Shown here: in pieces, positions 3,001 to 41,021 of the stretch
Position numbering within the stretch: the stretch's first letter is position 1
Layout of the letters: each line of letters opens with the position of its first letter
Assembly (NCBI RefSeq): GCF_055900595.2
Contig: NZ_CM148325.1
DNA: 64,000 nucleotides
Direction: 5' to 3' (one strand)
Position numbers and translations under genes: made by a program
The notes under the pieces: generated by a model
Database searches by the model: none
What the model was told of the DNA's origin: nothing
Seen by the model: the letters and a program-made list of their open reading frames with translations, nothing else

Positions 3001-3170
3001 TCACTGTCCAGCACCGGCGTACCGTTCAGCAGCACGCTTTTTAATCCATCCACCGGTCCTTGTATCGGCCCTTCGCTGATGACATCGATCACACTCAGCA
3101 ACTGCGTGGACTTCAGGTTGTCCTTCGCTTCGCGCGGGGTATGCCCCTTACTGCTGCCTTTACCCATTCC
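1..3170 (-). CDS. J: tail tip / host specificity protein J (partial; C-terminal part lies beyond window start)
   Basis: Minus-strand start at 3170 translates [34 protein letters not shown], matching lambda J N-terminus; reverse complement of 1-70 encodes [20 protein letters not shown], a J-internal motif; plus-strand ORF 630..2567 is an Arg-rich antisense shadow. Frame continuity over the whole span not checked by hand. Confidence 0.8.
185..526 (-). repeat. tandem direct repeat, 2 copies of ~171 bp, inside J coding region
   Basis: 185-355 and 357-526 are near-identical (e.g. ctatctgtcggctgttctcctccgtgctcctg...caccgctctttttcgccac occurs twice); unit length is a multiple of 3. Confidence 0.8.
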
Positions 3171-3227
3171 TCACGCTCCATAAACGACAAAACCGCCCGG
3201 AGGCGGTTTCACATAAAACGTTTTTCA

Positions 3228-3869
3228 TCAGCGACCAATCACCACAACCTGACCACCATCACCTTCATCTGCTGTGCTGATCTCCTGAGATACCACACGT
3301 GATCCCACGCGCATTTCACCGTACAGAACGGGCAGAACATTGCCCTGGGCAACCATATTATCCAGTGAAGAAGAATAGGTGTTCTGTTTGCCGTTATCCG
3401 TTGTCTGTGTGCGGGGGGTTTTGGGTTTAGGGGCCAGCATCTGTGCAACACCGCCAAGCGTCATACTGGCACCGAGAGAAAACAGCAGATTACTCGCCAT
3501 AATTCCTACCCCCGGCATCCATATAGCAACCGCCATAACAGCCGCCCCCAGCACAGCCTGAAACACACCACCACGTTTGGCTCCCGCCAGACGCGGCACG
3601 ATGTGGATCACGGCACCATTTGCCAGCGGTTCATTAAGACGGGCTGATAATTCGTTTTCGCCTGTATCACGCCCGGCAATACGCACCTGATACCAGCCGT
3701 CGCTCAGTTTCTGACGAAACGCAGGGAGCTGCGTGGCCAGCGCCCGGATGGCTTCGGCTCCCGTTTTCACACGAAGGTCGATGCGGCGGCCAAATCGTTG
3801 CAAATCCCCGTAAAGGCAGATGCGTGCCATGCCCGGTGACGCCAGAGGGAGTGTGTGCGTCGCTGCCAT
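3228..3869 (-). CDS. I: tail assembly protein I
   Basis: 213-aa ORF; position between J and K; C-terminal hydrophobic segment; overlaps K by ~100 bp as in lambda. Confidence 0.8.
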   Translation of the reverse strand: MAATHTLPLASPGMARICLYGDLQRFGRRIDLRVKTGAEAIRALATQLPAFRQKLSDGWYQVRIAGRDTGENELSARLNEPLANGAVIHIVPRLAGAKRGGVFQAVLGAAVMAVAIWMPGVGIMASNLLFSLGASMTLGGVAQMLAPKPKTPRTQTTDNGKQNTYSSSLDNMVAQGNVLPVLYGEMRVGSRVVSQEISTADEGDGGQVVVIGR

Positions 3870-4510
3870 TTGTCGGTATACCTCTCTCGTTTGCTCAGTT
3901 GTTCAGGAATATGGTGCAGCAGCCCGCCGTCGCCGCAGTAAATGGCGGCATGATTCGGCACCGATGAACCAAAACAGCACAGCAGCACGTCGCCGGGCTG
4001 CGCCTCTGTCAGTGCGACACGGTAAAAACCAGTCGCCTCCATATTGTCAAGATAGAGATTCTGACCGTTACGCCACCAGTCATCCCCGCGATGAAAATCC
4101 GGCATCTCAATTCCCGCCAGATGGTAAGCATCCCGGAACAGCGTGTAACAGTCCGTCACCCCGTGCTCAAAGCACCGCCCGGTGAGATGCGGCACACAGC
4201 GGAACTTGTGAATCGCCCCCCGGCAGACCAGCCACCACGGCAAATCACTCTGCACCTGCAGCCGCCGGTCGGCCTCACTCAGCCAGGGCAGACCACCGGG
4301 GTGACTGTGGACCAGTGCCACAATCTCACCCTGCATCTCTGCCTGCAGCCAGTCCTCCGGCGACATCCGGAAATACGCCTCCGGCTCACCGGAGATATTC
4401 ACGCAGGGGAAATATCTTTCCCCCTCCGGCGCTCTCACCACGAAGCCGCACGACTCCGCTGGCGCACATCGCCGGGCGTGCGCCAGAATCGCTGATTCTG
4501 TCTCTGTCAT
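3767..4510 (-). CDS. K: tail assembly protein K (NlpC/P60 plus JAB/MPN-like)
   Basis: ORF 3767..4552; likely start MTETESAILAHARRCAPAESCGFVV; HSHP motif (VALVHSHPGG); lambda K-like. Confidence 0.85.
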   Translation of the reverse strand: MTETESAILAHARRCAPAESCGFVVRAPEGERYFPCVNISGEPEAYFRMSPEDWLQAEMQGEIVALVHSHPGGLPWLSEADRRLQVQSDLPWWLVCRGAIHKFRCVPHLTGRCFEHGVTDCYTLFRDAYHLAGIEMPDFHRGDDWWRNGQNLYLDNMEATGFYRVALTEAQPGDVLLCCFGSSVPNHAAIYCGDGGLLHHIPEQLSKRERYTDKWQRRTHSLWRHRAWHASAFTGICNDLAAASTFV

Positions 4511-4514
4511 GGGA

Positions 4515-5213
4515 TTACTGCGAAAGTTTGTTAATGGAAAGGAAGCCGCCAAAGTTGCCGACGTTATTGCGAAACTTACAGCCGCTCAGGCATTTGCTGC
4601 ATTTATCCTTCGTGATATCGGACGTCGGCTGGTCATATTCATCCGCGACTGCCGGACCGTGATAACCGCACTCATCACCGCGATAGGTCCAGGTGCAGGT
4701 GTTGGCCAGCATGATACGTCCCGGAAAAACAGCGCCATCCGTTTCCGTCGGCGTGGCCAGTACAAAGGTCGCGCTGACCGCTGTCAAATCACTGCACTGC
4801 TCGATGCGCCAGCGGCTGATCACCTCCTGCTCCGGATCGGCGTCACTGTTTCCGTTGACGAAGTTCACCGCATCCAGAAAACGGGCGTAAACCTTACGCC
4901 GGACCACCGTTCCGCCGACCAGACTCTGCATATCTTCCGCCATCCCGGTGACCATACCGTACAGGTTAGAAACCGTCAGCGTGGGGCGCGTACTGGTGCC
5001 TTTGCCATTCAGTTCAAAACCGCTCCCCTGAATGGGATACGGCTGATACTGTCGCACCTGCCAGGTGACCGGCTCACCTTTTTCGTTCTGCTCATTACAG
5101 AAAAAATAACGTTCTCCACCGACCTCTGTCAGGTCGATTTCCCAGAGCACCACGCTGGCCGACTGCTCCGCACGGGTGCATTCATTCAGTGTTTCCTGCC
5201 GGATATCCTGCAT
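4515..5213 (-). CDS. L: minor tail protein L
   Basis: 232-aa ORF, same length as lambda L; C-terminal Cys cluster (CSKCLSGCKF); synteny. Confidence 0.85.
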   Translation of the reverse strand: MQDIRQETLNECTRAEQSASVVLWEIDLTEVGGERYFFCNEQNEKGEPVTWQVRQYQPYPIQGSGFELNGKGTSTRPTLTVSNLYGMVTGMAEDMQSLVGGTVVRRKVYARFLDAVNFVNGNSDADPEQEVISRWRIEQCSDLTAVSATFVLATPTETDGAVFPGRIMLANTCTWTYRGDECGYHGPAVADEYDQPTSDITKDKCSKCLSGCKFRNNVGNFGGFLSINKLSQ

Positions 5214-5542
5214 CAGTTCACCACCTGTTCAAACTCTGCGCTGAACTCAACACGCAGCATACTGACCCGCGACGACCATTTTGCGCAGGTCACCTTTATC
5301 TGCCGCCACTCATAAGGCGGCGTCCACAGAAAGGCTTTCCAGCCCCCGTGCTCTTCCAGAAACGACTCCAGCGCCGTGGCCTCCCAACGGGGGACAGAAA
5401 GCGTCACGCTGTACGTTTTCAGGTTGGCATTCAGCCCGGCAGGCGCTCGCTGGGAATAGCCATCACCAAAGCGCACCTTTCTTACAGAAGGGGCCGAAGC
5501 CACATCCATACCGGGTTTCACTTTCCAGCGGAAGGTTTTCAT
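5213..5542 (-). CDS. M: minor tail protein M
   Basis: 109-aa ORF between L and H; lambda M-like. Confidence 0.85.
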   Translation of the reverse strand: MKTFRWKVKPGMDVASAPSVRKVRFGDGYSQRAPAGLNANLKTYSVTLSVPRWEATALESFLEEHGGWKAFLWTPPYEWRQIKVTCAKWSSRVSMLRVEFSAEFEQVVN

Positions 5543-8118
5543 CGTCCACCTCCGGAGAACAGGCCACCATCGCGCATCTGTGCCTGGATTTCATCACGGG
5601 CACCCTTGCGGGCCATGTCATACACCGCCTTCATCATCTGTGGACCTGGCAGACCATTCGTACCGTCGTTCTGAATCACCACGTTGTTGTTCTGCTCAAA
5701 CCTGATACCCTCTGAACGCCGCATTTGCGCCGGACTTCCGGTGCCACCGACATAACCGCCGGTGGCATAGCCGCGCATCAGCCGGTAGAGATTTCCCACG
5801 CCAATCCGGCTGGTTGCCTCCTTCGTGAAGACAAACTCACCACGGTGAACAATCCCCGCTGGCTCATATTTGCCGCCGGTTCCCGTAAATCCTCCGGTTG
5901 CAAAATGGAATTTCGCCGCAGCGGCCTGAATGGCTGTACCGCCTGACGCGGATGCGCCGCCACCAACAGCCCCGCCAATGGCGCTGCCGATACTCCCGAC
6001 AATCCCCACCATTGCCTGCTTAAGCAGAATTTCTGTCATCATGGACAGCACGGAGCGGGTGAAGCTGCGCCAGTTCTGTTCACTGCCGGTCAGCATCGCC
6101 GCCATATTCTGCGCAATACCATCAAAGGTCTGCGTGGCAGCACTTTTAACCTGCGACATACTGTCCGTGGCGCTCTCTTCCCACTCACTCCAGCCGGACT
6201 TCAGGCCTGCCATCCAGCTCCCGCGAAGCAGGTCTTCAGCCGCCCAGGTCTTTTTCTGCTCTGACATGACGTTATTCAGCGCCAGCGGATTATCGCCATA
6301 CTGTTCCTTCAGGCGCTGTTCCGTGGCTTCCCGTTCTGCCTGCCGGTCAGTCAGCCCCCGGCTTTTCGCATCAATGGCGGCCCGTTTTGCCCGTTGCTGC
6401 TGTGCGAATTTATCCGCCTGCTGCGCCAGCGCGTTCAGGCGCTCCTGATACGTAACCTTGTCGCCAAGTGCAGCCAGCTGGCGTTTGTACTCCAGCGTCT
6501 CATCTTTATGCGCCAGCAGGGATTTCTCCTGTGCAGACAGCTGGCGACGTTGCGCCGCCTCCTCCAGTACCGCGAACTGACTCTCCGCCTTCCACAAATC
6601 CCGGCGCTGCTGGCTGATTTTCTCATTTGCTCCGGCATGCTTCTCCAGCGTCCGGAGTTCAGCCTGAAGCGTCAGCAGGGCAGCATGAGCACTGTCTTCC
6701 TGACGCTCTCCCGCAGACACCTTCACGCCGGACTGTTTCGGCTTTTTCAGCGTCGCTTCATAATCCTTTTTCGCCGCCGCCATCAGCGTGTTGTAATCTG
6801 CCTGCAGGATTTTCCCGTCTTTCAGTGCCTTGTTCAGTTCTTCCTGACGGGCGGTATATTTCTCCAGCGGTGTCTGCAGCCGTTCGTAAGCCTTCTGCGC
6901 CTCTTCGGTATATTTCAGCCGTGATGCCTCAGAGTCGGCCCAGTCCTTTGCTGCCATCTCTCTGGCCTTTTCAAGATCGGCCTGCAACGTGGCGGCTGAA
7001 AGCCCAAGTTGCGCATTCGCTCTGTCCTCCCATGCTCCCCGGAGATTGGCAAGAAATGCTGAGGTTTTACCGCGCCGGTGGCTCCGGCTCTGATACCACT
7101 GCCATTTTTTGTCCGCCTCATCAAAAGCCTTTTCTGCTTTCTCCAGCATTTCCCGGGCAGTGTCCGGGCGACCAATATCCAGCACCGAATCCCACATGGA
7201 TTTGAATGCCCGCGCTGTCCTGTCTGCCCAGGTCTCCAGCGTGCCCATGTTCTCTTTCAGGCGGCGGGTCTGGTCATCAAACCCTTTCGTTGCGGCCTCG
7301 TTCGCCGCCTGCAATGCCCCTGCCTCATCGCCGGAACGCTGCAACTGAGCAACATACGCAATCTGCTCCGCCGTCACGTTATGGAACTGGCGCGCCATCG
7401 CCGTCAGCCCCGACGTCGGGTCTGTGGTCAGCTTCCCGAAGGCTTCAGCGACCTTGTCCACCTCCACGCCGGATGCAGAGGAGAAACGCGCCACACTCTG
7501 GCTGATGGACGCAATCTGAGCCTCACCGCTTACCCCCGCCTTAACCAGTGCGCTGAGTGACTCGCTGGTCTGGTTAAACGTCAGCCCTGCCGCCTGCCCG
7601 GCTCTGGACAGGACCAGCATACGATCTGCCGTCAGACCCGACTGATTGCCGGAAAGGACCAGCGTTTTGTTGAAATCGGACAGGGTTGAGTTGCCCTGAT
7701 ACCAGGCATACGCCAGCGCACCGGTCGCCACCGCCAGCGAGGTGGCCCCGACCATCGGCAGGGTGATCGCACCGGCAAGCCCCCTGAACATGGGGATCAT
7801 CCCGCCGAAGGAGTCCTTCACCTGACCGCCCTGTTGCAGCAGGATCAGCCACGGACTCTGCCCGCCTGCAAGCTGTGTGGCCACGTCGGTGAACTGTGCA
7901 GGCAGCATACGCATGGCGGCTTTATACTGTCCGACGGAAATCCCCGCTTTCTGTGCAGCCAGCGCCTGTCGGCTCAGCGACTGTTCAACGACTGCCGCTG
8001 TTTTTTTCGCATCACTTTCCGTACCGGAAAAATGACGCCTGACTCTGGCCATCTGCTCGTCAAATCTGGCCGCATCCAGACTTAAATCAACGACCAGATC
8101 GCCTACCGGTTCAGCCAT
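5539..8118 (-). CDS. H: tail tape measure protein H
   Basis: 859-aa ORF (lambda H 853 aa); Ala/Gln-rich coiled-coil centre; Gly-rich C-terminal part; synteny. Confidence 0.9.
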   Translation of the reverse strand: MAEPVGDLVVDLSLDAARFDEQMARVRRHFSGTESDAKKTAAVVEQSLSRQALAAQKAGISVGQYKAAMRMLPAQFTDVATQLAGGQSPWLILLQQGGQVKDSFGGMIPMFRGLAGAITLPMVGATSLAVATGALAYAWYQGNSTLSDFNKTLVLSGNQSGLTADRMLVLSRAGQAAGLTFNQTSESLSALVKAGVSGEAQIASISQSVARFSSASGVEVDKVAEAFGKLTTDPTSGLTAMARQFHNVTAEQIAYVAQLQRSGDEAGALQAANEAATKGFDDQTRRLKENMGTLETWADRTARAFKSMWDSVLDIGRPDTAREMLEKAEKAFDEADKKWQWYQSRSHRRGKTSAFLANLRGAWEDRANAQLGLSAATLQADLEKAREMAAKDWADSEASRLKYTEEAQKAYERLQTPLEKYTARQEELNKALKDGKILQADYNTLMAAAKKDYEATLKKPKQSGVKVSAGERQEDSAHAALLTLQAELRTLEKHAGANEKISQQRRDLWKAESQFAVLEEAAQRRQLSAQEKSLLAHKDETLEYKRQLAALGDKVTYQERLNALAQQADKFAQQQRAKRAAIDAKSRGLTDRQAEREATEQRLKEQYGDNPLALNNVMSEQKKTWAAEDLLRGSWMAGLKSGWSEWEESATDSMSQVKSAATQTFDGIAQNMAAMLTGSEQNWRSFTRSVLSMMTEILLKQAMVGIVGSIGSAIGGAVGGGASASGGTAIQAAAAKFHFATGGFTGTGGKYEPAGIVHRGEFVFTKEATSRIGVGNLYRLMRGYATGGYVGGTGSPAQMRRSEGIRFEQNNNVVIQNDGTNGLPGPQMMKAVYDMARKGARDEIQAQMRDGGLFSGGGR

Positions 8119-8545
8119 ACCGGACTCCTCCTGCGATCCCTTCTGATACTGTCATCAGCATTACGTCATCCTCCGTCATGTCCGCCACATCCGTGGATGC
8201 AGGGATAACTTCATTCCCGTCCGGACCAAAGCGGACGCCTCCGGCAAGCCCTGCCGCTTTCTGCATCAGCACATCATCTTCAGGCTCTTCGTCAGCCTCG
8301 CGCCGGTTCAGCAGACTGAAATCCAGCGGATGCATCTCCGGATCGCTGAAAAACAGGCTGAGCACGGTGTACGTCAGCCCGGAAAAGTGCATATCCAACA
8401 GAACATCATGAAAATAATGGGTACTGTAAAAACGGTGCCAGTCGGCATACTCCGTGGATGACATCCCGGCAAGCATGGCACGCCAGTCGGGTCGCCCCAT
8501 CTCACGCGCCAGTTTCAGGGCAAAACTCAGCTCACCGTCGAACAC
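8111..8545 (-). CDS. T: tail assembly chaperone T (T portion of G-T frameshift product)
   Basis: 144-aa ORF overlapping the 3' end of G in the -1 frame; slippery heptamer GGGAAAG on the minus strand at ~8530-8545. Confidence 0.75.
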   Translation of the reverse strand: MFDGELSFALKLAREMGRPDWRAMLAGMSSTEYADWHRFYSTHYFHDVLLDMHFSGLTYTVLSLFFSDPEMHPLDFSLLNRREADEEPEDDVLMQKAAGLAGGVRFGPDGNEVIPASTDVADMTEDDVMLMTVSEGIAGGVRYG

Positions 8546-8949
8546 TTTCCCGCAGAAACAGGCTCTGCAGGCCCGGCGTCCTCTGTCTGTTCAGGGGCAT
8601 TATTCACAACAAACTCATACATACCAGACAGCCGGTACACCACGTTTTCAGCATGAGAAATTGCCTCCGTGGGCCAGGTGGTAAGCACTTCCTGCTCAAT
8701 CTGTTTAACGGCTTCATTCATGGAAGGCAGCTTTGTCTTCTGCGGATGGTTATGCCACAGGGACATCGCCACCACAAAAGCACCGGTTCTGATGGCGTCT
8801 TCCACAGTAAACTTCCGGTTGCTGTCTGACTCCGCCTGTTCTGCCTGCCGTTTCATCAGGGCGAGATGCTCAATACGCTGCAGGGCTGACAGTTCAGAAA
8901 GCGTGACGGTCACACCGTTATGTTCAAATGATTCGGTTTTCAGGAACAT
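8527..8949 (-). CDS. G: tail assembly chaperone G
   Basis: 140-aa ORF (lambda G 140 aa); position between V and H; acidic C-terminus. Confidence 0.85.
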   Translation of the reverse strand: MFLKTESFEHNGVTVTLSELSALQRIEHLALMKRQAEQAESDSNRKFTVEDAIRTGAFVVAMSLWHNHPQKTKLPSMNEAVKQIEQEVLTTWPTEAISHAENVVYRLSGMYEFVVNNAPEQTEDAGPAEPVSAGKCSTVS

Positions 8950-8964
8950 CGCTGACTCTCCGGA

Positions 8965-9735
8965 TTAACTGGCGGTGACGTTGATTTCTGCAACCGCAGC
9001 AAGTTCACCATTACCGGATACGACCGGAATGTTGACCTTGCCTGCAGCAACGCCGTTCACGGTGATGGTCATACCACTGACCGACACGGTGGCTTTTGTT
9101 TTATCCGCAGACACCGCACGGAAGCTCTTGTCGGTTGCGCCTTCCGGCTGGAATGCCACGGTCAGCGTCGTGCTCTTCCCTTTCACCACCGAGGTGCTGG
9201 CAGGCGTCACGGTCATGCCGGTTGCCGCTGTTACCGTGCTGCGATCTTCTGCCATCGACGGACGTCCCACATTGGTGACTTTCACCGTGCGGGTGATCAC
9301 TTCCTTCGCCGTCACCGCCTTACCGATACTGCTGACCCAGCCGCGGAACACATCGATCGTGCCGTTCGGGAAGCGGATTTTATAGGCACGGGTATCACCT
9401 TCATTAAACCACGCCAGCAGCGCCTGCTGCCCCTGCTCTCCGGGCATCCACGCCAGCGTGAAGCTGGTATCTCCGGCAGATTTCTGCCCCTGTCCGGTCG
9501 CGGTCCAGTCCGCATCTTCATCATCGAGATAACTGTCGTCATAGGACTCAGCGGTCAGTTCGCCGGGCGTCAGGTCTTTAACCTTTGCCAGACGCGACCA
9601 GTCATTGTCTGAAAGCGGGTTTGCATAAGGGTCGCCGCTCCCGTTATAAACCCACAGTGTGGTCCCGGCCCCTTTCACCGGTGCCAGAGGATTTGGTGTT
9701 GGCATATCGTCCTCACATTTCATAGGTAATGACAT
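8965..9735 (-). CDS. V: major tail tube protein V (with C-terminal Ig-like domain)
   Basis: 256-aa ORF; synteny; C-terminal Thr/Val-rich Ig-like (Big_2-type) region. Confidence 0.85.
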
Positions 9736-10108
9736 AAGTCAGATCGGCTGAACTCCACAGGCCCGCATCATCGTCGCGCCGGTAGTCATAGCCACTGGCC
9801 ACCATACTGGTGATCAAATCTGACAGTGCCGGGATATCGCTCATCACCGGATAAATCCGGGACTCCATCCACGCATCCAGCTCTGAATCCGGCACCTGAG
9901 CAGGCAGGAAAACTTCAATATGCAGCTCCGCCTGCCAGGTATCGCTGTCCAGCTCTTCGCCCGTGTATTCAGCGCCGGTGAGATAAACGGCAACTGCCGG
10001 AAAATCCGCCTCATCAAAAACAGCGGGGCGACCATCAAAAAACGTCGCCCCGGTGTCATGCTTCTCCAGTGCATCCAGTACGGCTGTACGGATATCAGTA
10101 TTTTTCAT
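9713..10108 (-). CDS. U: tail terminator protein U
   Basis: 131-aa ORF (lambda U 131 aa); synteny. Confidence 0.8.
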
Positions 10109-10680
10109 CGCTTTATTACAATCCTCAGTTGTTGTTTCAGCGCATAGCTCAGTTCTTTTGGCAGACGTTCGCGTCGGATACGGTTAACGTTCTCATCAAA
10201 AGCCTGTTTCAGTGGGGCCGACATCGGAATTTTCACCACCTGAATGGGAAGACGATTACGCTTTTTCCTTCCCTTATCGTCATTGCCCTTCGCATACCTG
10301 GCTTCTGGCAGACGTTGCATAACATGCCAGCGCCCATTATTCAGTCGCTGGATGAATGCCCGCTGATAACGATGCTGACCGGCTTTGAGTATGCTGTTCG
10401 GGCGACGTCCCAGCATCCTGATCCCCAGCTTAATCACAGGAAGATCGCCGCGGTTAACGATAATTTTTGCGTTCGGATTTCTGACCGTAGCCCGTTTCAG
10501 TCTGGATCGCTCTTTAACAAGTTTTCTCGGCACCCGGGTTTCACGGGCGACCTGAGACGAAGACTGATTAATCGCCGTTGTGGCCACGCGGTTAATGGCC
10601 ATTGCTGACGCACCGGGCACCGCCGTTCTGCTGATACGGCTGAGGTTTTCAACGGCCTGCTCAAGACCCTGTATGGCCAT
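10105..10680 (-). CDS. Z: tail completion protein Z
   Basis: 191-aa ORF (lambda Z 192 aa); synteny. Confidence 0.8.
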   Translation of the reverse strand: MAIQGLEQAVENLSRISRTAVPGASAMAINRVATTAINQSSSQVARETRVPRKLVKERSRLKRATVRNPNAKIIVNRGDLPVIKLGIRMLGRRPNSILKAGQHRYQRAFIQRLNNGRWHVMQRLPEARYAKGNDDKGRKKRNRLPIQVVKIPMSAPLKQAFDENVNRIRRERLPKELSYALKQQLRIVIKR

Positions 10681-10691
10681 ACATCCCCCTT

Positions 10692-11054
10692 TCAGCGGCG
10701 ACGATTAACGGCAGGCGGTACGCCCCGCCCAAGCCAGAGATGACAGCTTCCGCCATCATCCGGCGAAATCCGGTCTATCCAGAAGTTTTCCTCACCGATG
10801 GTCAGCGTGTCGCCACGCCGCAGTTGCCGCACATCATCAGTCCGGACAAACAGGGACGGGCTGGAGCCTTCAACGCGCACGCCCTGTCCGGCATAGCTGA
10901 TATTTTCAGGGTCATCAAAAACACCACGTATTACTGCGCCGGGCTGCTCACCGGATGTAATGGTGGCTGACGTTCCCATGTACCCGCGTATCGTTTCATC
11001 AGCCCGGGCAATGGCTGTATCAAAACCGTTATCCCTGATATTAATAACTTTCAT
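10692..11054 (-). CDS. FII: head-tail connector protein FII
   Basis: ORF 10692..11090; probable start MKVINIRDNGF; position after FI. Confidence 0.7.
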   Translation of the reverse strand: MKVINIRDNGFDTAIARADETIRGYMGTSATITSGEQPGAVIRGVFDDPENISYAGQGVRVEGSSPSLFVRTDDVRQLRRGDTLTIGEENFWIDRISPDDGGSCHLWLGRGVPPAVNRRR

Positions 11055-11451
11055 CTGTAACAAGCCCCTCCAGGACAAGTTCCGCAACATTCACTGGATC
11101 AACTCTGACAGTCATACCTGTAACAACAATCTCCATATCACTGTCATCATGCGGATGTTTTCCCGCCACATGCAGGGTTTTGAGTACACGAACAGTGCTC
11201 ATTTCATCCCCGCCAGTGGAGTGGCTATACGTCATCAAATGCCTTTCGTTCTCATCACTCGCCTGGTTTTTGTCCTCTGCTTCCTCTTCCCATTCCGCCA
11301 CCCGCTGCGCTATCTCTGCGGCACTCCCGGATATATCCGGCTCACGCCCCAGAATCCGGGCCAGTTCATCAAGCCGTTTCAGATTTTGCTCTTTCGTTGC
11401 CATATCAGGCCTCTGTGAAAAAAGACACGGGGGCATTTCGCCCCCGCTCAC
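11041..11451 (-). CDS. FI: DNA packaging protein FI
   Basis: 136-aa ORF (lambda FI 132 aa) immediately downstream of E; acidic linker. Confidence 0.7.
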   Translation of the reverse strand: MSGGEMPPCLFSQRPDMATKEQNLKRLDELARILGREPDISGSAAEIAQRVAEWEEEAEDKNQASDENERHLMTYSHSTGGDEMSTVRVLKTLHVAGKHPHDDSDMEIVVTGMTVRVDPVNVAELVLEGLVTDESY

Positions 11452-11454
11452 GGA

Positions 11455-12483
11455 TTATTTCACCTGTACCACCACAAACTCATCCGGGTCCGGCAACACC
11501 ATCAGCGGCGCGGACTGCGTCATGGTAAATTCACGGGCGGGATCCCCCACCGTCAGCCAGTGTTTCGGATAACGGGAAGAGGCCACCACTCCTTCAGACA
11601 ACGCCTGTGCATCCTGAATGGCACCGTAACAACGGATCCCATCTGCAGCAGTATTCCCCAGGACCAGCGTGCCGTCTGGCAGATAACGTTTTTCGGTACC
11701 GTCCTCTGCCACATAAGACGTTTTCGCCACCACAATGGCCAGATCACCGTAATACCCTTTGAAAGACACCACCGCCCCCAGGTCTTTCACTGCCGTTTCG
11801 AGTTGCGAATTTGAACCGCGACGGGTATCCAGTTTTTCGCGGAACAGCTTAAAACCATTCAGCAGACGCCAGACGCTACCGTCCATAATGGCAATATTCA
11901 CAAGGCCGCTGGCCTGGTCGCAGTAGAGGTCAATATCATGCGCAGGATCGAACGTGTCACGATCGTGCTCAGACCATTTTTTACCACTGGCCTGCGTAAT
12001 GTTATTCGCCGGCGATCTGCCAAAATCGACCTCAATTTTCTCGAACTGGTCTCCTTCCATGGTGTATTTGCCATACAGCACGGCATTTACCGCCTGCATT
12101 TCTTCCACCTGGACAATCGCGTACTCTTCCTGTTTGAGGTTATCGGTAATGATACGCAGACGGCGGTAAGCCGGATCGTTCAGTTGAGCCGGATCTTCAC
12201 CAGGAAGGCGCTCAACCGCCTGCCGGGAATTAAATTCGTGTTTCGGCTTGACGTAGCCCGGACGCAAGACGCGGGTTTCACCACCACGATGACGCAGCAC
12301 TTTTCCTTCAACAACCGGGGAGACATAGGCCGCCACCGGCGTTTTTCCGGTAATTTTGTCCAGCATCACCTCTTCGGTATGGAAATTCACCGTACGGCGG
12401 AAAAACAGCTCCAGAAACAGCGCACGAAATTTCACTTTTTGTTCGGTATAACCGAGTAACTGGCGGGTCGTAAACAATCCCAT
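11455..12483 (-). CDS. E: major capsid protein E
   Basis: 342-aa ORF (lambda E 341 aa); position between D and FI. Confidence 0.9.
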   Translation of the reverse strand: MGLFTTRQLLGYTEQKVKFRALFLELFFRRTVNFHTEEVMLDKITGKTPVAAYVSPVVEGKVLRHRGGETRVLRPGYVKPKHEFNSRQAVERLPGEDPAQLNDPAYRRLRIITDNLKQEEYAIVQVEEMQAVNAVLYGKYTMEGDQFEKIEVDFGRSPANNITQASGKKWSEHDRDTFDPAHDIDLYCDQASGLVNIAIMDGSVWRLLNGFKLFREKLDTRRGSNSQLETAVKDLGAVVSFKGYYGDLAIVVAKTSYVAEDGTEKRYLPDGTLVLGNTAADGIRCYGAIQDAQALSEGVVASSRYPKHWLTVGDPAREFTMTQSAPLMVLPDPDEFVVVQVK

Positions 12484-12540
12484 AAATCAGTTCCTTTCAT
12501 TCAGAAATCAGTCAGGCCACCGCGGTGGCCTGATAACGTG

Positions 12541-12888
12541 TTACGGCAGCGCCGCGTGACTCAGGGCACTGCCAGCAAAGGCGTTGGCCTTTTTGTGTTC
12601 ATCCACACTGTCAGGCCAGCGGATTGCCTCCGTCGCAAAAGTCCCCGACTTGTAATACGTCAGCACCGTCTCTGTGCCTTCAAGCGGCAGTACCAGTATG
12701 CCAACCGCACCTCCGGCTTTCTGTCCGTCCCAGACCACCAGTTTCCCGGTGGCTTCATCCAGCATCAGGGGCGTCAGTGCCGGTGTTGCCGAGGAAATCC
12801 CGCTGCTGCCTGTGGCGGTGTGAGCCGGATCATTACCGGCAAAAATACGTACTTCCGCACGCTGTTCAGTGATGGTTTTCGTTACCAT
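12541..12888 (-). CDS. D: head decoration protein D
   Basis: 115-aa ORF (lambda D 110 aa); synteny. Confidence 0.85.
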   Translation of the reverse strand: MVTKTITEQRAEVRIFAGNDPAHTATGSSGISSATPALTPLMLDEATGKLVVWDGQKAGGAVGILVLPLEGTETVLTYYKSGTFATEAIRWPDSVDEHKKANAFAGSALSHAALP

Positions 12889-25608: not shown

Positions 25609-25685
25609 TGGACCGCCACCGGGGACTCGAACCTCGCACACTCAACTTAAAGGGTTGACGCTCTTTCCTGATGAGCTAGTGGCGG
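25609..25685 (-). tRNA. tRNA, identity uncertain (anticodon loop CCUUUAA)
   Basis: Acceptor CCGCCAC/GTGGCGG, D-arm GCTC..GAGC, anticodon stem TCAAC/GTTGA, T-loop TTCGAGT, 3' CCA encoded; position 33 is C rather than U. Confidence 0.65.
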
Positions 25686-25687
25686 TT

Positions 25688-25762
25688 GGTGGCCCTTGCT
25701 GGATTTGAACCAGCGACCTGGCGATTATGAGTCGCTCGCTCTCACCACTGAGCTAAAGGGCC
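25688..25762 (-). tRNA. ileZ: tRNA-Ile2 (CAU anticodon; ileX/ileZ-like)
   Basis: Reverse complement GGCCCTTTAGCTCAGTGGTGAGAGCGAGCGACTCATAATCGCCAGGTCGCTGGTTCAAATCCAGCAAGGGCCACCA is a near-match to E. coli ileX; T-arm GCTGG-TTCAAAT-CCAGC. Confidence 0.85.
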
Positions 25763-28897: not shown

Positions 28898-29053
28898 TTA
28901 CTCCTCAGGTTCGTAAGCTGTGAAGACAGCGACCTCCGTCTGGCCGGTTCGGATTCGTACCTCGCAGAGGTCTTTCCTCGTTACCAGTGCCGTCACAATG
29001 ACGGTAATACAGATGACGATCAGGGCGACTAACATCGCCTTTTGCTGCTTCAT
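28898..29053 (-). CDS. hok: Hok/Gef-family type I toxin (in-frame upstream extension to 29110 is mok-like)
   Basis: MKQQKAMLVALIVICITVIVTALVTRKDLCEVRIRTGQTEVAVFTAYEPEE resembles Hok (single TM, conserved C...EVA.F.AYE); inverted repeat GGCGAGGGATTTCTCCCTCGCC in the 3' region. Confidence 0.85.
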   Translation of the reverse strand: MKQQKAMLVALIVICITVIVTALVTRKDLCEVRIRTGQTEVAVFTAYEPEE

Positions 29054-29264
29054 AGCCTGCTTCTCCTTGCCTTTCGGCACGTAAGAGGCTAACCTAGATT
29101 TGCCGTTCATAGATTGAGCCTCAGATTAATGTTAAGCGTCTTGCCGGACGCGTAATGTTAACTGGGGCTTTTCTCTATCTGCCTTTTGGGGTTCATGCCT
29201 GAGACAGATAGCCTCAAGCACCCGCTGCAATTCTACTTAACTCTCCTTTTCCCGCAAACCGTTT

Positions 29265-34384: not shown

Positions 34385-34461
34385 CACCCCTCCAAAGTTG
34401 AGTTTTCTCAATGGTAATCACTCAAGGAATCTCAAGCCAAGGGTTATTAAGATATCTAAAT
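34385..34461. promoter_or_regulatory. immunity-region divergent promoter/operator (pR/pRM-like)
   Basis: 77-bp intergenic between divergent cro-like and repressor genes; palindrome TTGAGTTTTCTCAA at ~34397-34410. Confidence 0.6.
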
Positions 34462-34869
34462 ATGAACGAGAAAACTTTAGGTCAACGAATTAGAGAAAGA
34501 CGCAAACAGGTTGGTTTAAGTCAAAACGATTTAAGCAAAGCTGCTGGCGTATCTGGCTCATCAATTTCACTATGGGAAAGCGACCATACAGCCCCGCGCG
34601 GGCAAAATTTGCATCGCCTGGCTGAGGTATTGCAATGTTCACCAACTTGGATACTGTTTGGTGACGAGGATAAAACACCAGATCCACCAGTTGCACTCAA
34701 CAGCGCCTTAGACTTATCGGAAGATGAGTTGGAGATGTTGCGATTGTATCGCGCACTTCCAAAATCAGAGCAGCAAGCACAAATCAGCGAACTCCGTGCC
34801 CGCGTTGAGAATTTTAATCGCCTATTCACCGAGCTACTAGAAGCTCGCAAACGTAACAAACATCAATAA
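34462..34869 (+). CDS. CI-like repressor (XRE-family HTH, no peptidase domain)
   Basis: Start MNEKTLGQRIRERRKQVGLSQNDLSKAAGVSGSSISLWE (HTH_XRE signature); divergent from the cro-like gene. Confidence 0.8.
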   Translation: MNEKTLGQRIRERRKQVGLSQNDLSKAAGVSGSSISLWESDHTAPRGQNLHRLAEVLQCSPTWILFGDEDKTPDPPVALNSALDLSEDELEMLRLYRALPKSEQQAQISELRARVENFNRLFTELLEARKRNKHQ

Positions 34870-35420: not shown

Positions 35421-36208
35421 CAGACCCCTCAGAGGATACCACCTCGCCTGACGTGGTTAAAAGCAGGCACACAACACGAAAGCGCACGGCGAGGTAGCTG
35501 GTTCATATATAGCCTGTCGTTAAATTTTCGTCGACCGTGCGCTTCCGGTTGTGGCACTCCGCGAAATGGCGCGGCGGTAAGCATGGCGGGGTTCCCTTCC
35601 CCTTGAGGACACCGGGTTGTCAGGTTGACCATGCGCCTGAGTGACAACCCCGCTGCAACGCCCTCTGTTATCAATTTTCTGGTGACGTTTGGCGGTATCA
35701 GTTTTACTCCGTGACTGCTCTGCCGCCCTTTTTAAAGTGAATTTTGTGATGTGGTGAATGCGGCTCAGCGCACGCGGAACAGTTAAAACCAAAAACAGAG
35801 TTATGGGTGGATTCTCTGTATCCGGCGTTAATTGTTAACTGGTTAACGTCACCTGGAGGCACCTGGCACCGCATCAACAAAGTTCACTTCGGTGATGAAA
35901 GGTAAGAGAAAATGTTGAATGTAGCTATTGAAAACCAGTACGGGTGGAATTATAGTGCACCTGCACCTCATAAAACGGGTGCCGGGCGTGGAAACCCGAA
36001 AGTTACTCGAGCGCATAACCGCGCCGAAGCGGTTTTTTTATGCGTAATGCACAGCCACATTCAGATAATGGTGGGGCGTGCAGGGCAGCTGCAAGGCTGG
36101 CCGGGTTCTCGAGTGACCGGTATTTCCACCCCTGTACGTCTCGCCACCCTTATGGTCGTGGAAAGCCTCGGTGGTGAGTTAATTAACTTAACACTTGAGG
36201 ATGCCATC

Positions 36209-36760
36209 ATGGCTACTACCCTTACCCTTTCTCACCCTGACGTAACCATTGAAAATGGTCGCGCTGTCACTACGTCTATTGCGATCGCAGAATTCTTCGG
36301 CAAGCAGCATCACCATGTTGTTCAAAAAATAGAGGCCCTCGAATGTTCTGAACGCTTTTTAACCAGCAACTTTTCGCGGGTTAAATTCGAGCACCGTGGC
36401 AATACCTACAATGCCTACCAAATCACCAAAAACGGCTTCGTTTTCCTGGTGATGGGCTTCACCGGCAAAAAGGCCGCTGCATTCAAGGAAGCCTACATTG
36501 CCGAGTTCGACCGCATGGAGGAAGAACTGCGCCGGAATAACACCACACCCGCTGACAAAATAATCCCGGGTGATGGCCGCACCCTGGTTATCCGCTTCGA
36601 CGAACACGGCTACATCAAATTCACCGAAACCGTTCCTGATGGCGCACTGGTCTGTACTCTGGATACTTTCCGTTTTTATCTGGAAAAGCAGGGATGGACT
36701 CTCATAAACCGGGGCGCAATTAAAAATATGACCGTCGAGCAGTTGCTGAGTATTAAATAG
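36209..36760 (+). CDS. Rha-family phage regulatory protein
   Basis: ORF 35912..36760; probable start MATTLTLSHPDV; motif TTSIAIAEFFGKQHHHVVQKIEAL typical of Rha. Confidence 0.7.
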   Translation: MATTLTLSHPDVTIENGRAVTTSIAIAEFFGKQHHHVVQKIEALECSERFLTSNFSRVKFEHRGNTYNAYQITKNGFVFLVMGFTGKKAAAFKEAYIAEFDRMEEELRRNNTTPADKIIPGDGRTLVIRFDEHGYIKFTETVPDGALVCTLDTFRFYLEKQGWTLINRGAIKNMTVEQLLSIK

Positions 36761-36805: not shown

Positions 36806-37027
36806 ATGATTGCTCATCACTTCGGAACCGATGAAATACCACGCCAGTGCGTCACTCCCGGCGATTACGTTATTTACGAAGGCCGGACATATGTTGCATC
36901 GGCAAACAATATCGAAAAGCAAAAACTTTATATCCGTGATTTCACTACAAAAACATGCATTACTGACCGCATGATTAAAGTCTTCCTCGGTCGTGATGGT
37001 TTACCTGTAAAGGCGGAGGCATGGTGA
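36806..37027 (+). CDS. hypothetical small protein
   Basis: 73-aa ORF preceded by AAGGAG RBS. Confidence 0.5.
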
Positions 37028-37146: not shown

Positions 37147-39600
37147 ATGAGCACTGATAAAGAAACTTTTGCGCTATATTGCGAAGCTAAAAATGACAAA
37201 GTCAGAAAACGCCTTGGGATTAAAGGTGGTTTTTACTGGACTACAGCAAAAAAATTATCTGTTGCCATCTCCCGCTGCATTACCGCAATGGATGATAACG
37301 ATTATGATGAAGACGACTTTAAAAAACCTGTTCGCGTCCATTTGCCCGTTGTTGATGACCTTCCACCGGAAGGCGTGTTTGATACCGAATTCTGTAACCG
37401 GTATGAAAAAGGCGGCGAAGATGGCATCACAATGATATTTATCGCGCCTCCGCCATCCGCGCAGGACAAACCAGCCAGCACTGACAACACCAATGTTAAT
37501 GGCGAAGACATGACTGAGATTGAGGAGAATATGCTTCTGCCGGTTTCAGGTCAGATTCTGCCTGTTCGCTGGCTGGCGCAACACAGCGGCGAAAAACCAG
37601 TAACGCACGTTTCGCGGGATGAACTGCGCTCATTACATAACGCACAGGAAGAAAAACTTCCCGCCGTTACCGCGCTGGCCATCTCAAATAAAGCAGCGCA
37701 ACTCGAACCGCTGGAGATTCGGGATTTGTACAAACTGGTGCGGGACACTGACAAAGTTTTTCCCGCCCCCGTAAATTCAGACCTGGGACTGATGACCTCC
37801 TTCATCGAAGCATACCTGGACGCTGACTACACTGATCGTGGTCTGCTTACAAAAGAGTGGATGAAAGGAAATCGTGTTTCTCGCATCAGTCGCACACCAT
37901 CCGGCGCTAACGCTGGCGGCGGTATTCTTACCGATCGCGGCGAAGGTTTTGTGCATGATAATGCGTCAATGGCATTCGATGTTGCTACAGGAAAACTGGC
38001 TCGTTCGATGGATGTGGATATTTACAACATGCATCCTTCACATACCAGACGTGTTAACGAAATTATCGCAGAAAATGATCCCTGTTTCTCCGTCTTCCTT
38101 AAGGCTTTTCTGAACATGCCAGGCGGGATGGATTATTCCCGCGCCATCGTGGTTGCCTCCGTGAAAGAAGCACCGGTTGGTATAGAGGCTATGCCCCACC
38201 GCGTCACCGAATACCTGAATAAAGTGCTGACCGAAACCGATCATGCCAACCCTGATCCGGAAATCGTGGATATTGCCTGCGGTCGTTCCTCTGCCCCAAT
38301 GCCGCAGCGTGTAACAGAAGAAGGAAAACAGGATGATGAAGAAAAACCGCAACCGTCTGGCGCAATGGCAGATGAACAGCCAACGACTGAAACAGTGGAA
38401 CCGGATACAACTGAACATCATCCGGACACGCAGCCGCTGGATGCTCAGCCGCAGGTGAATTCTGTTGATGCGAAATATCAGAAACTGCGGGCAGAACTCC
38501 ATGAATCCCGGAAAAACATTCCGCCCCAAAATCCTGTCGACGAAGACAAATTGCTGGCAACCTCTGGCGGAGAATTTGCTGAAGGGATTAGCGACCCGAA
38601 TGATCCGAAATGGGTGAAGGGGATTGAAACCCGCGATTCTGTGAACCAGAACCAGCAAGAATCGGAACAGAACGACCAGAAAGCGGAAAAAAACAGCCAA
38701 AATGCGTTACAAAACGAGCCAGAAACGAAACAATCCGAACCAGTAGCGCAACAGGAACCGGAAAAAGTCTGCACCATCTGCGGTCAGAGCGGTGTCGGCA
38801 ACTGTCCTGATTGTGGCGTGGTGATGGGCGACGCAACATACCAGGAAATGTTCGATGAAGATAATCAGCCTGAAGTTCAGGAAAATGATCCAGAGGAAAT
38901 GGAAGGCTCTGCGCATCAGAACAAGGAGAACTCTGGCGGCAATCAGCATCATGCCAGCGATAGTGAAACTGGCGAGACGGCAAATCCCTTAATTAAGATA
39001 ACCAGTCATCACAAATATAAGTCCACAAGCAAAACGTGGTATCACCTGATGATCGACCTTGAAACAATGGGAACCAACACCAATGCACCCATAGTAGTTA
39101 TTGGTGCGGTTTTCTTCGACCCGGAAACAGGGGAAATCGGGCCGGTATTTTATATCGTTATCAGCCTGACTGACGCAATGAATACAGGGGCTGTTCCTGA
39201 TGGTGGCACCATCGAATGGTGGCTGAAGCAGTCCAGCGAAGCCAGAGCTGCCATTTTAACTGACCAGGTAAAAATGAAAGATGCCCTTTTGCGTTTTCGG
39301 GAATTCGTCAATGAACACTCTGATGAAAAATTCGTTCAGGTGTGGGGTAATGGCGCAACGTTCGATAACGCAATTTTGCGCACCTCATACGAACGTCTGG
39401 ACATCCCCTGTCCGTGGCATTACAGCAACGATCGTGATGTACGCACAATCGTTGAGATGGGGAAAATCACAGACTTCAATGCCAGAAGCGTAATTCCATT
39501 CGAAGGCGTGCGCCATAATGCTCTGGATGACGCTCTTCACCAGGCAAAATACGTAACAGCCGCTATACAAAAACTGATCCCGAATCAGGCTGATTTTTAA
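37147..39600 (+). CDS. RecE-like N-terminal region fused to C-terminal DEDDh 3'-5' exonuclease domain
   Basis: 817-aa ORF; N-terminal ~590 aa recalled as similar to the non-catalytic part of Rac RecE ([17 protein letters not shown]...); C-terminus has Exo I (MIDLETMG), Exo II ([12 protein letters not shown]), Exo III (HNALDDALH) motifs. Confidence 0.7.
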
Positions 39601-39664: not shown

Positions 39665-39913
39665 ATGGCAAGACTTATTCTGCTCACTGAGTGGGCAAAA
39701 GAGGAATTCAGTGAACCGGTCCCTAGTCCGGGTACGTTAAGTAAATACGCTAAAGCCGGAATGATATTTCCTCTCCCCAAAAAAGTAGGAAGGCACTGGC
39801 GAGTGGATCCACGCGCTCGCTTTGTCGGAATGGTAAACAAGCCGGAGGTGATCGCCACAGATCACCCTGCTTTGAAGAGGATACTGGAAGATGGCGCGCC
39901 CGCGAAAATATAA
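39665..39913 (+). CDS. xis: excisionase (Xis)
   Basis: 82-aa ORF overlapping the int start; motif resembles lambda Xis. Confidence 0.75.
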   Translation: MARLILLTEWAKEEFSEPVPSPGTLSKYAKAGMIFPLPKKVGRHWRVDPRARFVGMVNKPEVIATDHPALKRILEDGAPAKI

Positions 39914-41021
39914 AACCGATGTTCCGGGTTTATCTCCGTATTTTGACAAAAGAAATAACAAAGTTTACTGGCGTTACAGGCATCCCATCACAGGTAAAAA
40001 TCATGGACTCGGCAGTATTGACCAGAAACTGGCGGAAACCATTGCAGCAGAAGCGAACAGCCGTCTTGCCAGACAACAAATGGAGCAAATGCTCAGTCTG
40101 CAGGAGAAAATTATTAGTGATACCGGCGGCGCATCAACCGTTTCCATTTTTCTGAATAATTACAGAAAAATTCAACAGGAAAGATATGAGAACGGAGAGA
40201 TCAAACTCAGCACGCTGAAGCAAAAAGCGGCTCCTCTCAGGGTGTTTGATGAACGTTTTGGAGCCAGGCCGCTAGATGCCATAACCGTAAAAGATGTGGT
40301 ATCGGTGCTGGAAGAATACAAGGCAAAGGGACATAACAGAATGGGACAAATTTTCAGGAAGGTATTGATCGATGTTTTCCGGGAGGCTCAACAAACGGGT
40401 GATGTTCCGCCAGGCTTTAACCCGGCTGAATCGGCAAAAAAACCGCAAGTGCGGATATCAAGACAGCGACTGACTTTTGATGAGTGGATGATGATTTATA
40501 ACGCAGCGGAAAAGGATGGTTACTTTTTACAGCGCGGCATGCTGCTGGCACTGATGACGGGCCAGCGTCTTTCGGATATTTGCAAAATGCAGTTTTCGGA
40601 TATCCGGGATGGTTACCTTCATGTCGAACAGCAAAAAACAGGAGCCCGGATAGCCATTCCTCTGGCTCTGCGTTGCGACAAATTAAATCTTACCCTGGGT
40701 GACGTGGTGTCATCCTGTCGTGATTACATCCTTAGTCCGTGGTTATTGCACCATCATCACGCTAAGGGGATGGGTAAGCGCGGCGGGATGGTTAAACCAG
40801 CAACATTAACAGTCGCATTTAAAAAAGCCCGGGATTCTGTGGATTACAACTGGCGTGCTAATGGCACGCCACCCTCTTTCCATGAGCAAAGATCTTTATC
40901 AGAACGATTGTTCAGAGAACAGGGAATTGATACCAAAATTTTGCTGGGCCATTCGAATCAAAAAATGACCGATATTTACAACGACGCACGCGGTAAAGAG
41001 TGGAAAAAACTGGTTATTTGA
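39891..41021 (+). CDS. int: tyrosine integrase (lambda Int family)
   Basis: 376-aa ORF; N-terminal arm-binding-like region; C-terminal catalytic region (...LLGHSNQKMTDIY) ; att junction immediately downstream. Confidence 0.9.
   Translation: MARPRKYKTDVPGLSPYFDKRNNKVYWRYRHPITGKNHGLGSIDQKLAETIAAEANSRLARQQMEQMLSLQEKIISDTGGASTVSIFLNNYRKIQQERYENGEIKLSTLKQKAAPLRVFDERFGARPLDAITVKDVVSVLEEYKAKGHNRMGQIFRKVLIDVFREAQQTGDVPPGFNPAESAKKPQVRISRQRLTFDEWMMIYNAAEKDGYFLQRGMLLALMTGQRLSDICKMQFSDIRDGYLHVEQQKTGARIAIPLALRCDKLNLTLGDVVSSCRDYILSPWLLHHHHAKGMGKRGGMVKPATLTVAFKKARDSVDYNWRANGTPPSFHEQRSLSERLFREQGIDTKILLGHSNQKMTDIYNDARGKEWKKLVI

Follow-up and report, generated by a model that had tools for sequence, protein, structure and literature searches.

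A lambdoid prophage gene joining a RecE-type front end to a predicted DEDDh exonuclease domain

What might a lambdoid prophage do with a protein that begins like the recombination exonuclease RecE, ends in a nuclease of predicted opposite polarity, and is encoded with no annealing protein nearby? This question is raised by an 817-amino-acid (aa) open reading frame (ORF) at 37147-39600 (+) in a 64,000-nucleotide (nt) stretch of contig NZ_CM148325.1 (NCBI RefSeq assembly GCF_055900595.2), the whole of which we refer to as the window. The original prediction for this locus, made from the sequence alone, gave the position and length of the ORF exactly. It starts with ATG about 8 nt downstream of a GAGG Shine-Dalgarno sequence, and the start chosen by the NCBI Prokaryotic Genome Annotation Pipeline (PGAP) for the identical ORF in E. 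coli strain GF4, where the product is named “exonuclease”, is the same. We find that the gene is one mosaic member of an abundant, already annotated and recently noted class of lambdoid early-left exonucleases. What is new is the position of the mosaic join inside a shared middle module, the occurrence of the same front end with a PDDEXK nuclease, with a DEDDh nuclease or with neither, and selection on both folded domains.

Domain architecture of the protein

Domain searches, alignments and AlphaFold2 (AF2) models, together with the ratio of nonsynonymous to synonymous substitution rates (dN/dS), divide the protein into a RecE-type scaffold, an acidic linker and a C-terminal nuclease domain, as follows.

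37147-39600, plus strand: complete ORF of 817 aa plus stop, comprising the RecE-type scaffold, the linker and the DEDDh exonuclease
37147-37446, plus strand: aa 1-100, small alpha/beta subdomain of the scaffold (AF2 model)
37504-38316, plus strand: aa 120-390, all-helical subdomain of the RecE-type scaffold
38317-39030, plus strand: aa 391-628, acidic linker, mostly disordered, with one helix at aa 440-459 (AF2 confidence, dN/dS)
38539-38994, plus strand: aa 465-616, middle module common to K-12 RecE, the Tritos exonuclease and this protein
38593-38613, plus strand: aa 483-489, short linear motif DPNDPKW in predicted disorder
38770-38817, plus strand: aa 542-557, putative zinc ribbon CxxCG-x6-CPxCG (AF2 confidence about 85)
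39043-39561, plus strand: aa 633-805, Rv2179c-like / DexA-like DEDDh 3'-5' exonuclease domain (Pfam PF16473)

The likeness of the N-terminal region to Rac RecE, which the original prediction had pointed out, is real. In a BLASTP alignment with K-12 RecE (b1350), aa 58-616 match RecE 50-591 with 387/559 identities (69%) and nothing matches beyond, so that the similarity ends in the linker just ahead of the RecE nuclease domain, whose place is taken by another nuclease. The 57 residues before the start of the match to K-12 RecE are matched by other members of the family. The Pfam domain Exonuc_VIII (PF06630) is found at aa 57-189 (E 1.7e-25) and at RecE 2-178, and the two proteins also share the acidic linker, the DPNDPKW motif and the zinc ribbon. 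The NCBIfam model for exodeoxyribonuclease VIII (NF007259) aligns aa 1-633 of the protein to only positions 1-620 of its 877, leaving 621-877 unmatched, and the score of 1016.4 bits lies below the curated cut-off of 1269, so that the protein falls outside this equivalog.

The AF2 model of aa 1-400, built from 70 sequences, has a mean predicted local distance difference test (pLDDT) score of 88.7 with a disordered loop at aa 104-119, and this front end matched no solved fold. In the linker, pLDDT is below 50 for most of aa 462-535 and 564-626, and order is predicted only at the helix of aa 440-459 and at the CxxCG-x6-CPxCG element. The latter is modelled as a small beta element and is kept in K-12 RecE and Tritos. 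No Pfam zinc-ribbon match, whether in RecE or in the family member P0123, reaches significance. A DP.DP.[WFY] pattern is present in 27 of 82 long family representatives, spread over all three C-terminal classes (PDDEXK, DEDDh and nuclease-less), and DPNDPKW, set in predicted disorder, could be a docking motif for a partner protein.

For the C-terminus, the original prediction had claimed about 230 aa with DnaQ/RNase T-type motifs. The assignment stands on both the Pfam search and the motifs, which lie at aa 635-642, 733-744 and 790-798, but the DEDDh domain is shorter, at about 185 aa. Pfam Rv2179c-like (PF16473) matches aa 633-805 with E 1.5e-67 over model positions 2-175 of 177, and Pfam RNase_T also matches weakly. 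The catalytic pentad of the ExoI, ExoII and ExoIII motifs is complete (D637, E639, D740, H790 and D795); because MAFFT was off by four residues against DexA in motif III, the H-x4-D of the two proteins was aligned by eye. The only solved structures with sequence similarity are those of T4 DexA (8KEL/8KEN; E 1.6e-8). An AF2 model of aa 440-817, in which pLDDT exceeds 90 over aa 629-814, likewise has DexA as its best Foldseek match (E 7e-13; TM-score 0.66-0.74, normalised to DexA length), followed by the dimeric DEDDh 3'-5' exonucleases REXO2/Orn and RNase T. DexA has the same DEDDh pentad but is only 24-28% identical to our domain; it belongs to a virulent phage, stands alone at 227 aa and has extra loops. 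RecE's own PDDEXK nuclease (DUF3799) gave no Pfam match in our protein, though it is found in K-12 RecE at 615-850. From its family, the C-terminal domain is very likely a metal-dependent 3'-5' exonuclease, probably dimeric and acting on free 3' ends. The predicted polarity is safe at the level of the family because all characterised DEDDh enzymes share it.

Mosaic origin, selection and modularity

DNA comparisons trace the two ends of the gene to different sources. Nucleotides 339-1847 of the gene match K-12 recE at 78.6% identity, and nucleotides 1393-2454 match the exonuclease genes of phages Tritos and mEp460_ev081 at 78.6-80%. The two matches overlap over aa 465-616, a module of about 150 aa whose equivalents are RecE 456-591 and residues 475-625 of the Tritos exonuclease. 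The same division extends to the neighbours, as the upstream kil gene and the 5' two-thirds of the exonuclease gene are Rac-like at the DNA level, whereas the DNA from 38539 through the integrase gene is like that of PPompW prophages (87.6%). In addition, an allele that is 96% identical overall is nearly identical in its N- and C-terminal parts and much more diverged in the middle. The shared middle module therefore serves as a recombination zone through which catalytic domains are exchanged, and the gene arose by recombination, inside this module, of a Rac-type recE with a PPompW/Tritos-type exonuclease gene.

The genes that match the 3' part have the same overall design. The Tritos exonuclease TRITO_27 (823 aa) shows the same three-part architecture and is 71% identical over aa 465-816 (tblastn, BLASTP), and the exonucleases of mEp460_ev081 and PPompW share architecture and synteny as well as the absence of an annealing protein. 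Their first approximately 460 residues, however, form a divergent YdfE-like scaffold with almost no pairwise similarity to the Rac-type scaffold of our protein.

Purifying selection acts on both folded domains. By the Nei-Gojobori method, the scaffold and the DEDDh domain have dN/dS values of 0.15-0.25 (0.17-0.25 for the DEDDh domain itself), as against 0.34-0.48 in the linker, from comparisons with an 83%-identical allele, with Tritos and mEp460_ev081 for the C-terminal domain and with recE for the scaffold, the copies compared being 18-50% divergent.

To see how the front end is used across the family, aa 1-400 were searched with phmmer against 1.84 billion cluster representatives. Only 175 proteins were returned; the scaffold family is thus narrow. 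Reading the C-terminal classes from the best 150 representatives, we find 14 with a DEDDh domain, 20 with the RecE PDDEXK domain and 49 of at least 480 aa with neither; in this third class Pfam finds only Exonuc_VIII, apart from two fusions to RecT and a single weak DUF3799 match. Among the 13 fused representatives, with N-termini sharing only 24-73% identity with that of our protein, 11 retain the DEDDh catalytic residues. The exceptions are P0156, which is truncated, and P0149, which is substituted at two catalytic positions.

Individual members of the family merit mention in their own right. P0149 (752 aa; locus L016, 6001-8259) has Lys for the ExoI Glu (DLKTMG) and Ala for the ExoII Asp (SFANV), and from these substitutions it may be a catalytically dead variant that retains the scaffold. 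P0121 (703 aa) carries the RecE N-terminal region in frame with the C-terminal two-thirds of RecT, the join falling just after the zinc-ribbon CxxCG, and looks like the outcome of a deletion that removed the RecE nuclease domain and the start of recT. P0135, a divergent fused homologue (L014/L015, 6001-8547), has a faint Pfam YdfE_C match. The Tritos-type exonuclease genes are preceded by dicB-ydfD, and the same dicB-ydfD order stands ahead of ydfE in the K-12 Qin prophage. K-12 Qin ydfE may be the truncated scaffold of a Tritos-type exonuclease.

Prophage setting and the missing annealing partner

The gene belongs to a 28-kb lambdoid prophage inserted in ompW, which runs from a duplicated ompW fragment at about 12,635 to an attR just past the end of int at 41,021 (span about 12,635-41,100). 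A truncated portal gene and the loss of most tail genes mark the prophage as defective. We read the gene content of the same prophage from the PGAP annotation of the GF4 genome, which carries a 100% identical gene. The early-left operon runs on the plus strand in the order repressor, small ORFs and small RNAs (sRNAs), Rha/Ant-like gene, kil, exonuclease gene, xis and int:

34411-34869, plus strand: repressor gene of the early-left operon
36806-37027, plus strand: kil, Rac-type FtsZ inhibitor gene directly upstream of the exonuclease gene (phrog_294, E 6e-34)
39665-39913, plus strand: excisionase gene directly downstream of the exonuclease gene
39891-41021, plus strand: integrase gene of an ompW-integrating (PPompW-type) prophage

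The original prediction had named Rha and xis/int as the flanks; the downstream side is as described, but the gene directly upstream is kil, 89% identical at the DNA level to Rac kilR, and the Rha-like gene lies one further away. Scans for a promoter of its own or for an isolating terminator did no better with the real than with shuffled sequence, and we rejected the idea that either sets the exonuclease gene apart.

In Rac, the order is kilR-ydaE-racC-recE-recT...xis-int, so that our gene occupies the slot of recE downstream of kil. Relative to Rac, the PDDEXK domain of RecE (a 5'-3' double-stranded DNA exonuclease), the recT gene that follows it, ralR and rcbA are replaced by the DEDDh domain with xis directly next.

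The absence of an annealing partner, which the original prediction had asserted, is borne out: no RecT, Bet or Erf-type gene was found in the 28-kb defective prophage by tblastn, the PHROG database or PGAP. RecT and the RecE nuclease region (RecE 591-866), each used in tblastn against the window, gave nothing below E = 1, and we rejected a homologue of either elsewhere in the window. A PHROG scan of ten early-region ORFs returned no annealing protein. It gave only repressor, Rha/Ant, Kil, O/P-like, CII-like and Ren-like proteins or unknowns, so we also rejected a hidden annealing protein among the small ORFs. The PGAP annotation of the whole same prophage in GF4 lists none. The early-left module likewise contains no gene for a single-stranded DNA-binding protein or for an anti-RecBCD protein, a Gam-like protein being sought only through PGAP names and the ten-ORF PHROG scan.

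The same picture is obtained outside the window. The functional phages mEp460_ev081 and Tritos share with PPompW prophages and other E. coli genomes a gene order in which a division inhibitor and a small ORF precede an exonuclease of about 820 aa, xis and int, and the annotation of these loci from the repressor gene to int includes no annealing protein. Precomputed Pfam hits for Salmonella, Citrobacter and metagenome contigs include no known annealing-protein family, and the same hits give none with fused homologues whose scaffolds are only about 35% identical. Judging from these loci, the lack of an annealing partner is the rule for the DEDDh-fused class. Stand-alone prophage genes of 183-190 aa, named “3'-5' exoribonuclease” and without scaffold or linker, are 57-91% identical to the DEDDh domain. 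Those of 189-190 aa in Salmonella (P0115) and Citrobacter (P0088) prophages are, like our gene, the last before an excisionase-type gene, with int next in Salmonella.

The novelty that the original prediction implied did not survive comparison with the databases. Copies covering at least 80% of the gene are present in 1038 of 5426 complete E. coli genomes by megablast, or about a fifth, some copies elsewhere being frameshifted or disrupted by insertion sequences (IS). The architecture has PHROG families of its own (phrog_2082 and phrog_20376), PGAP has a name for it, and it is the nuclease of phage Tritos. Copies are annotated as “exonuclease” or “3'-5' exonuclease” and in phage records as “exodeoxyribonuclease VIII”, so that database names for this prophage exonuclease run from the wrong to the generic. 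DnaQ-like 3'-5' nucleases near int in lambdoid phages have been noted by Zheng, Casjens, Davidson, Amundsen and Smith (Genome Res 2025), who also describe “RecE-2” proteins lacking a nuclease domain and a nuclease-only class, with Tritos as its prototype, made up of four Chi-rich phages that lack an anti-RecBCD gene. Literature searches on PF16473/Rv2179c-like proteins in prophages, on ydfE and on DEDDh anti-defence proteins returned nothing specific to the RecE-scaffold DEDDh family, and a search for biochemical measurements found none for our protein or for any fused homologue.

Several further features of the window were recorded. Positions 1-12,600 hold host genes (yciQ through yciE), among them the trp operon and an IS1, and a YadA-like and a DinI-like gene lie near the left end of the prophage. 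The kil gene is misleadingly named “cell division protein FtsZ” by PGAP (window 36806-37027; GF4 record L001, 8660-8881), the accompanying PGAP note itself describing a Rac Kil inhibitor of FtsZ. Rfam matches place the isrK sRNA at 35963-36039 (+; 67 bits) and C4 antisense RNA at 36064-36151 (+; 74 bits), both falling within the first third of the ORF at 35912-36760, to which PGAP gives the name “Rha family phage regulatory protein”, and a terminator-like hairpin at 36017-36034 is consistent with the end of isrK. The true start of the Rha/Ant ORF is probably near 36209 (MATTLTLSH...). We take this arrangement to resemble the P1 immI or Gifsy-1 IsrK-type, C4-controlled antirepressor module. A sok antisense RNA at 29048-29223 (-) adjoins an annotated hokD toxin gene. 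Immediately beyond the Q antiterminator gene, on the strand that it is transcribed from, come two prophage tRNA genes (25612-25762, -), Lys and Ile according to GF4 PGAP.

Candidate functions and wider meaning

The roles that the original prediction had offered, namely anti-defence, defence and non-canonical recombination, are each still candidates. As a working proposal, to which we give somewhat less than even odds, the protein would process DNA 3' ends during lytic growth and leave strand exchange to host RecBCD/RecA. After induction or infection, the early-left promoter would drive the exonuclease gene together with kil, xis and int. The DEDDh nuclease would then act on 3' ends in phage DNA, trimming 3' tails or flaps or resecting ends, with the RecE-type scaffold bringing whichever nuclease is attached to it to the same target, and in phages without an annealing protein recombination would fall to RecBCD/RecA. 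We favour this role because the DEDDh domain takes the position of the RecE nuclease on a recombination-enhancing scaffold, because the class lacks annealing and anti-RecBCD genes and bears Chi, and because gene order puts the exonuclease gene with kil, xis and int. Full-length RecE is better than its nuclease domain alone in linear-linear recombination (review PMC11611040), and lambdoid phages without a Rec module have been argued to exploit host RecBCD (Zheng et al. 2025). In the truncated 28.4 kb prophage remnant, the strand of the rightward and late genes carries 5 copies of Chi (GCTGGTGG) and the other strand 1:

23838, 25842, 27851, 29291 and 31157, minus strand: Chi sites
27445, plus strand: Chi site

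Other observations weigh against this proposal. The E. coli genome has on average about one Chi per 4.5 kb, and the Chi count of the truncated prophage only equals that host average. Transcription with the early-left operon is deduced from gene order, the promoter and terminator scans having been at chance level. The closest fold relatives after DexA, namely REXO2/Orn and RNase T, are 3'-trimmers of RNA and oligonucleotides, such that the substrate could be RNA or oligonucleotides. Phages with a DnaQ-type gene near int often have a separate canonical Rec module as well, and the usual effect of 3'-5' exonucleases is to inhibit recombination (Zheng et al. 2025), so the nuclease may serve a purpose other than recombination.

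One such purpose would be anti-defence, in which the DEDDh domain destroys an immune nucleic acid or signal (retron multicopy single-stranded DNA (msDNA), cyclic or linear oligonucleotides, or priming single-stranded DNA) and the scaffold provides targeting. We think this unlikely. The int-proximal end of the early-left region does host sporadic DnaQ-type genes, often beside a canonical Rec module (Zheng et al. 2025), and relatives of the Orn/REXO2 type degrade short oligonucleotides. In addition, Rac RecE degrades retron msDNA in vivo and the product of its neighbour racC blocks the retron toxin, so that this gene slot already interacts with defence systems. However, the literature that we searched describes no anti-defence family for PF16473 or for DEDDh phage nucleases, the sequence carries no sign of specificity for oligonucleotides or cyclic nucleotides, and the scaffold is common to a bona fide recombination nuclease. 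That last fact also bears on the reading in which the enzyme trims RNA 3' ends or clears oligoribonucleotides, for RNA stability or nucleotide recycling, and leaves DNA ends alone. The naming of the Pfam family after the 3'-5' exoribonuclease Rv2179c, the presence of REXO2, Orn and RNase T among the fold neighbours and the PGAP name “3'-5' exoribonuclease” given to many relatives all point to RNA, but DexA, the solved structure nearest in sequence as well as in fold, is a DNA exonuclease, and the domain stands in for a DNA nuclease on a scaffold of DNA recombination; we regard an RNA role as distinctly unlikely.

DexA itself suggests a further role, that of HREX, in which the enzyme would degrade incoming phage DNA containing 5-hydroxymethylcytosine (5hmC) and spare host DNA, as a defence or as superinfection exclusion. 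EcD, an E. coli DexA homologue borne on a prophage, is reported to protect against T4 and to degrade its DNA (Kang et al., NAR 2025). EcD-type genes that we located with the published forward primer encode a protein that is 37% identical to our domain and has the published Ala at EcD position 78. The EcD model does not transfer to our protein because its diagnostic residues are not conserved: W152 of DexA, needed for cleavage of 5hmC DNA and kept as W in the EcD-type protein, is S760; D169 of DexA corresponds to F777 with no acidic equivalent, in a region where the alignment is uncertain (28% identity); and the tetramer Asp, D90 of DexA and Ala78 of EcD, is retained as D712. Gene order also suggests a repressed early-left operon and not a moron expressed in the lysogen, and EcD-type genes themselves lie in early operons of P2-like prophages. 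PADLOC-DB 2.0 returned only a 22-bit generic match to a CRISPR-associated DEDDh protein, and on this result we rejected membership in a catalogued defence system. HREX-like activity is therefore improbable in our view. We likewise rejected identity with EcD, which by its primers runs from MIDTET to TIPETY, is stand-alone at about 190 aa, belongs to P2-like prophages and is only 37% identical. Finally, the gene could be an inert relic, formed as a chimera by accident and carried without a selected function in a decaying prophage. The host prophage is indeed defective, frameshifted or IS-disrupted copies exist elsewhere and P0149 is changed at two catalytic positions, but the gene has an uninterrupted frame, copies that are 18-50% divergent give dN/dS of 0.15-0.25 for both domains, and the architecture is kept in viable phages and in 1038 complete genomes. 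We consider a relic barely credible.

The EcD-type gene that we located lies at L020:5989-6570 (E. coli 2013C-3033) and in 25 other complete genomes, between small early ORFs and dam/gpA. From the exact forward-primer match and Ala78, the “bacterial” EcD appears to be an early-operon gene of P2-like prophages.

The main value of the gene is what it says about the RecE N-terminal region; its novelty is otherwise limited. The first approximately 600 residues of RecE are a domain of unknown function in a current review, yet they boost linear-linear recombineering (PMC11611040). We find that this region is selected, that it is independent of RecT, and that it is naturally joined to nucleases of opposite polarity or to none. 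Taken together, these findings suggest that it has a function of its own, perhaps targeting or partner binding through the linker motif, and it is probably a targeting platform. A bolder version, which we put forward only as a long shot, is that the scaffold and the disordered linker (DPNDPKW, with or without the zinc ribbon) form an autonomous targeting platform with interchangeable payloads of PDDEXK, DEDDh or none. If this were true, the DEDDh version would be a self-sufficient end-processing or counter-defence enzyme that works independently of an annealing protein, and the swap could be selected as immunity senses RecE/RecT-type activities, for example RecE acting on retron msDNA. The binding partner of the scaffold would then also explain the role of the first 600 residues of RecE. 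The scaffold and the linker motif offer a handle on the RecE N-terminal region, and the gene draws attention to a prophage exonuclease that about a fifth of complete E. coli genomes carry.

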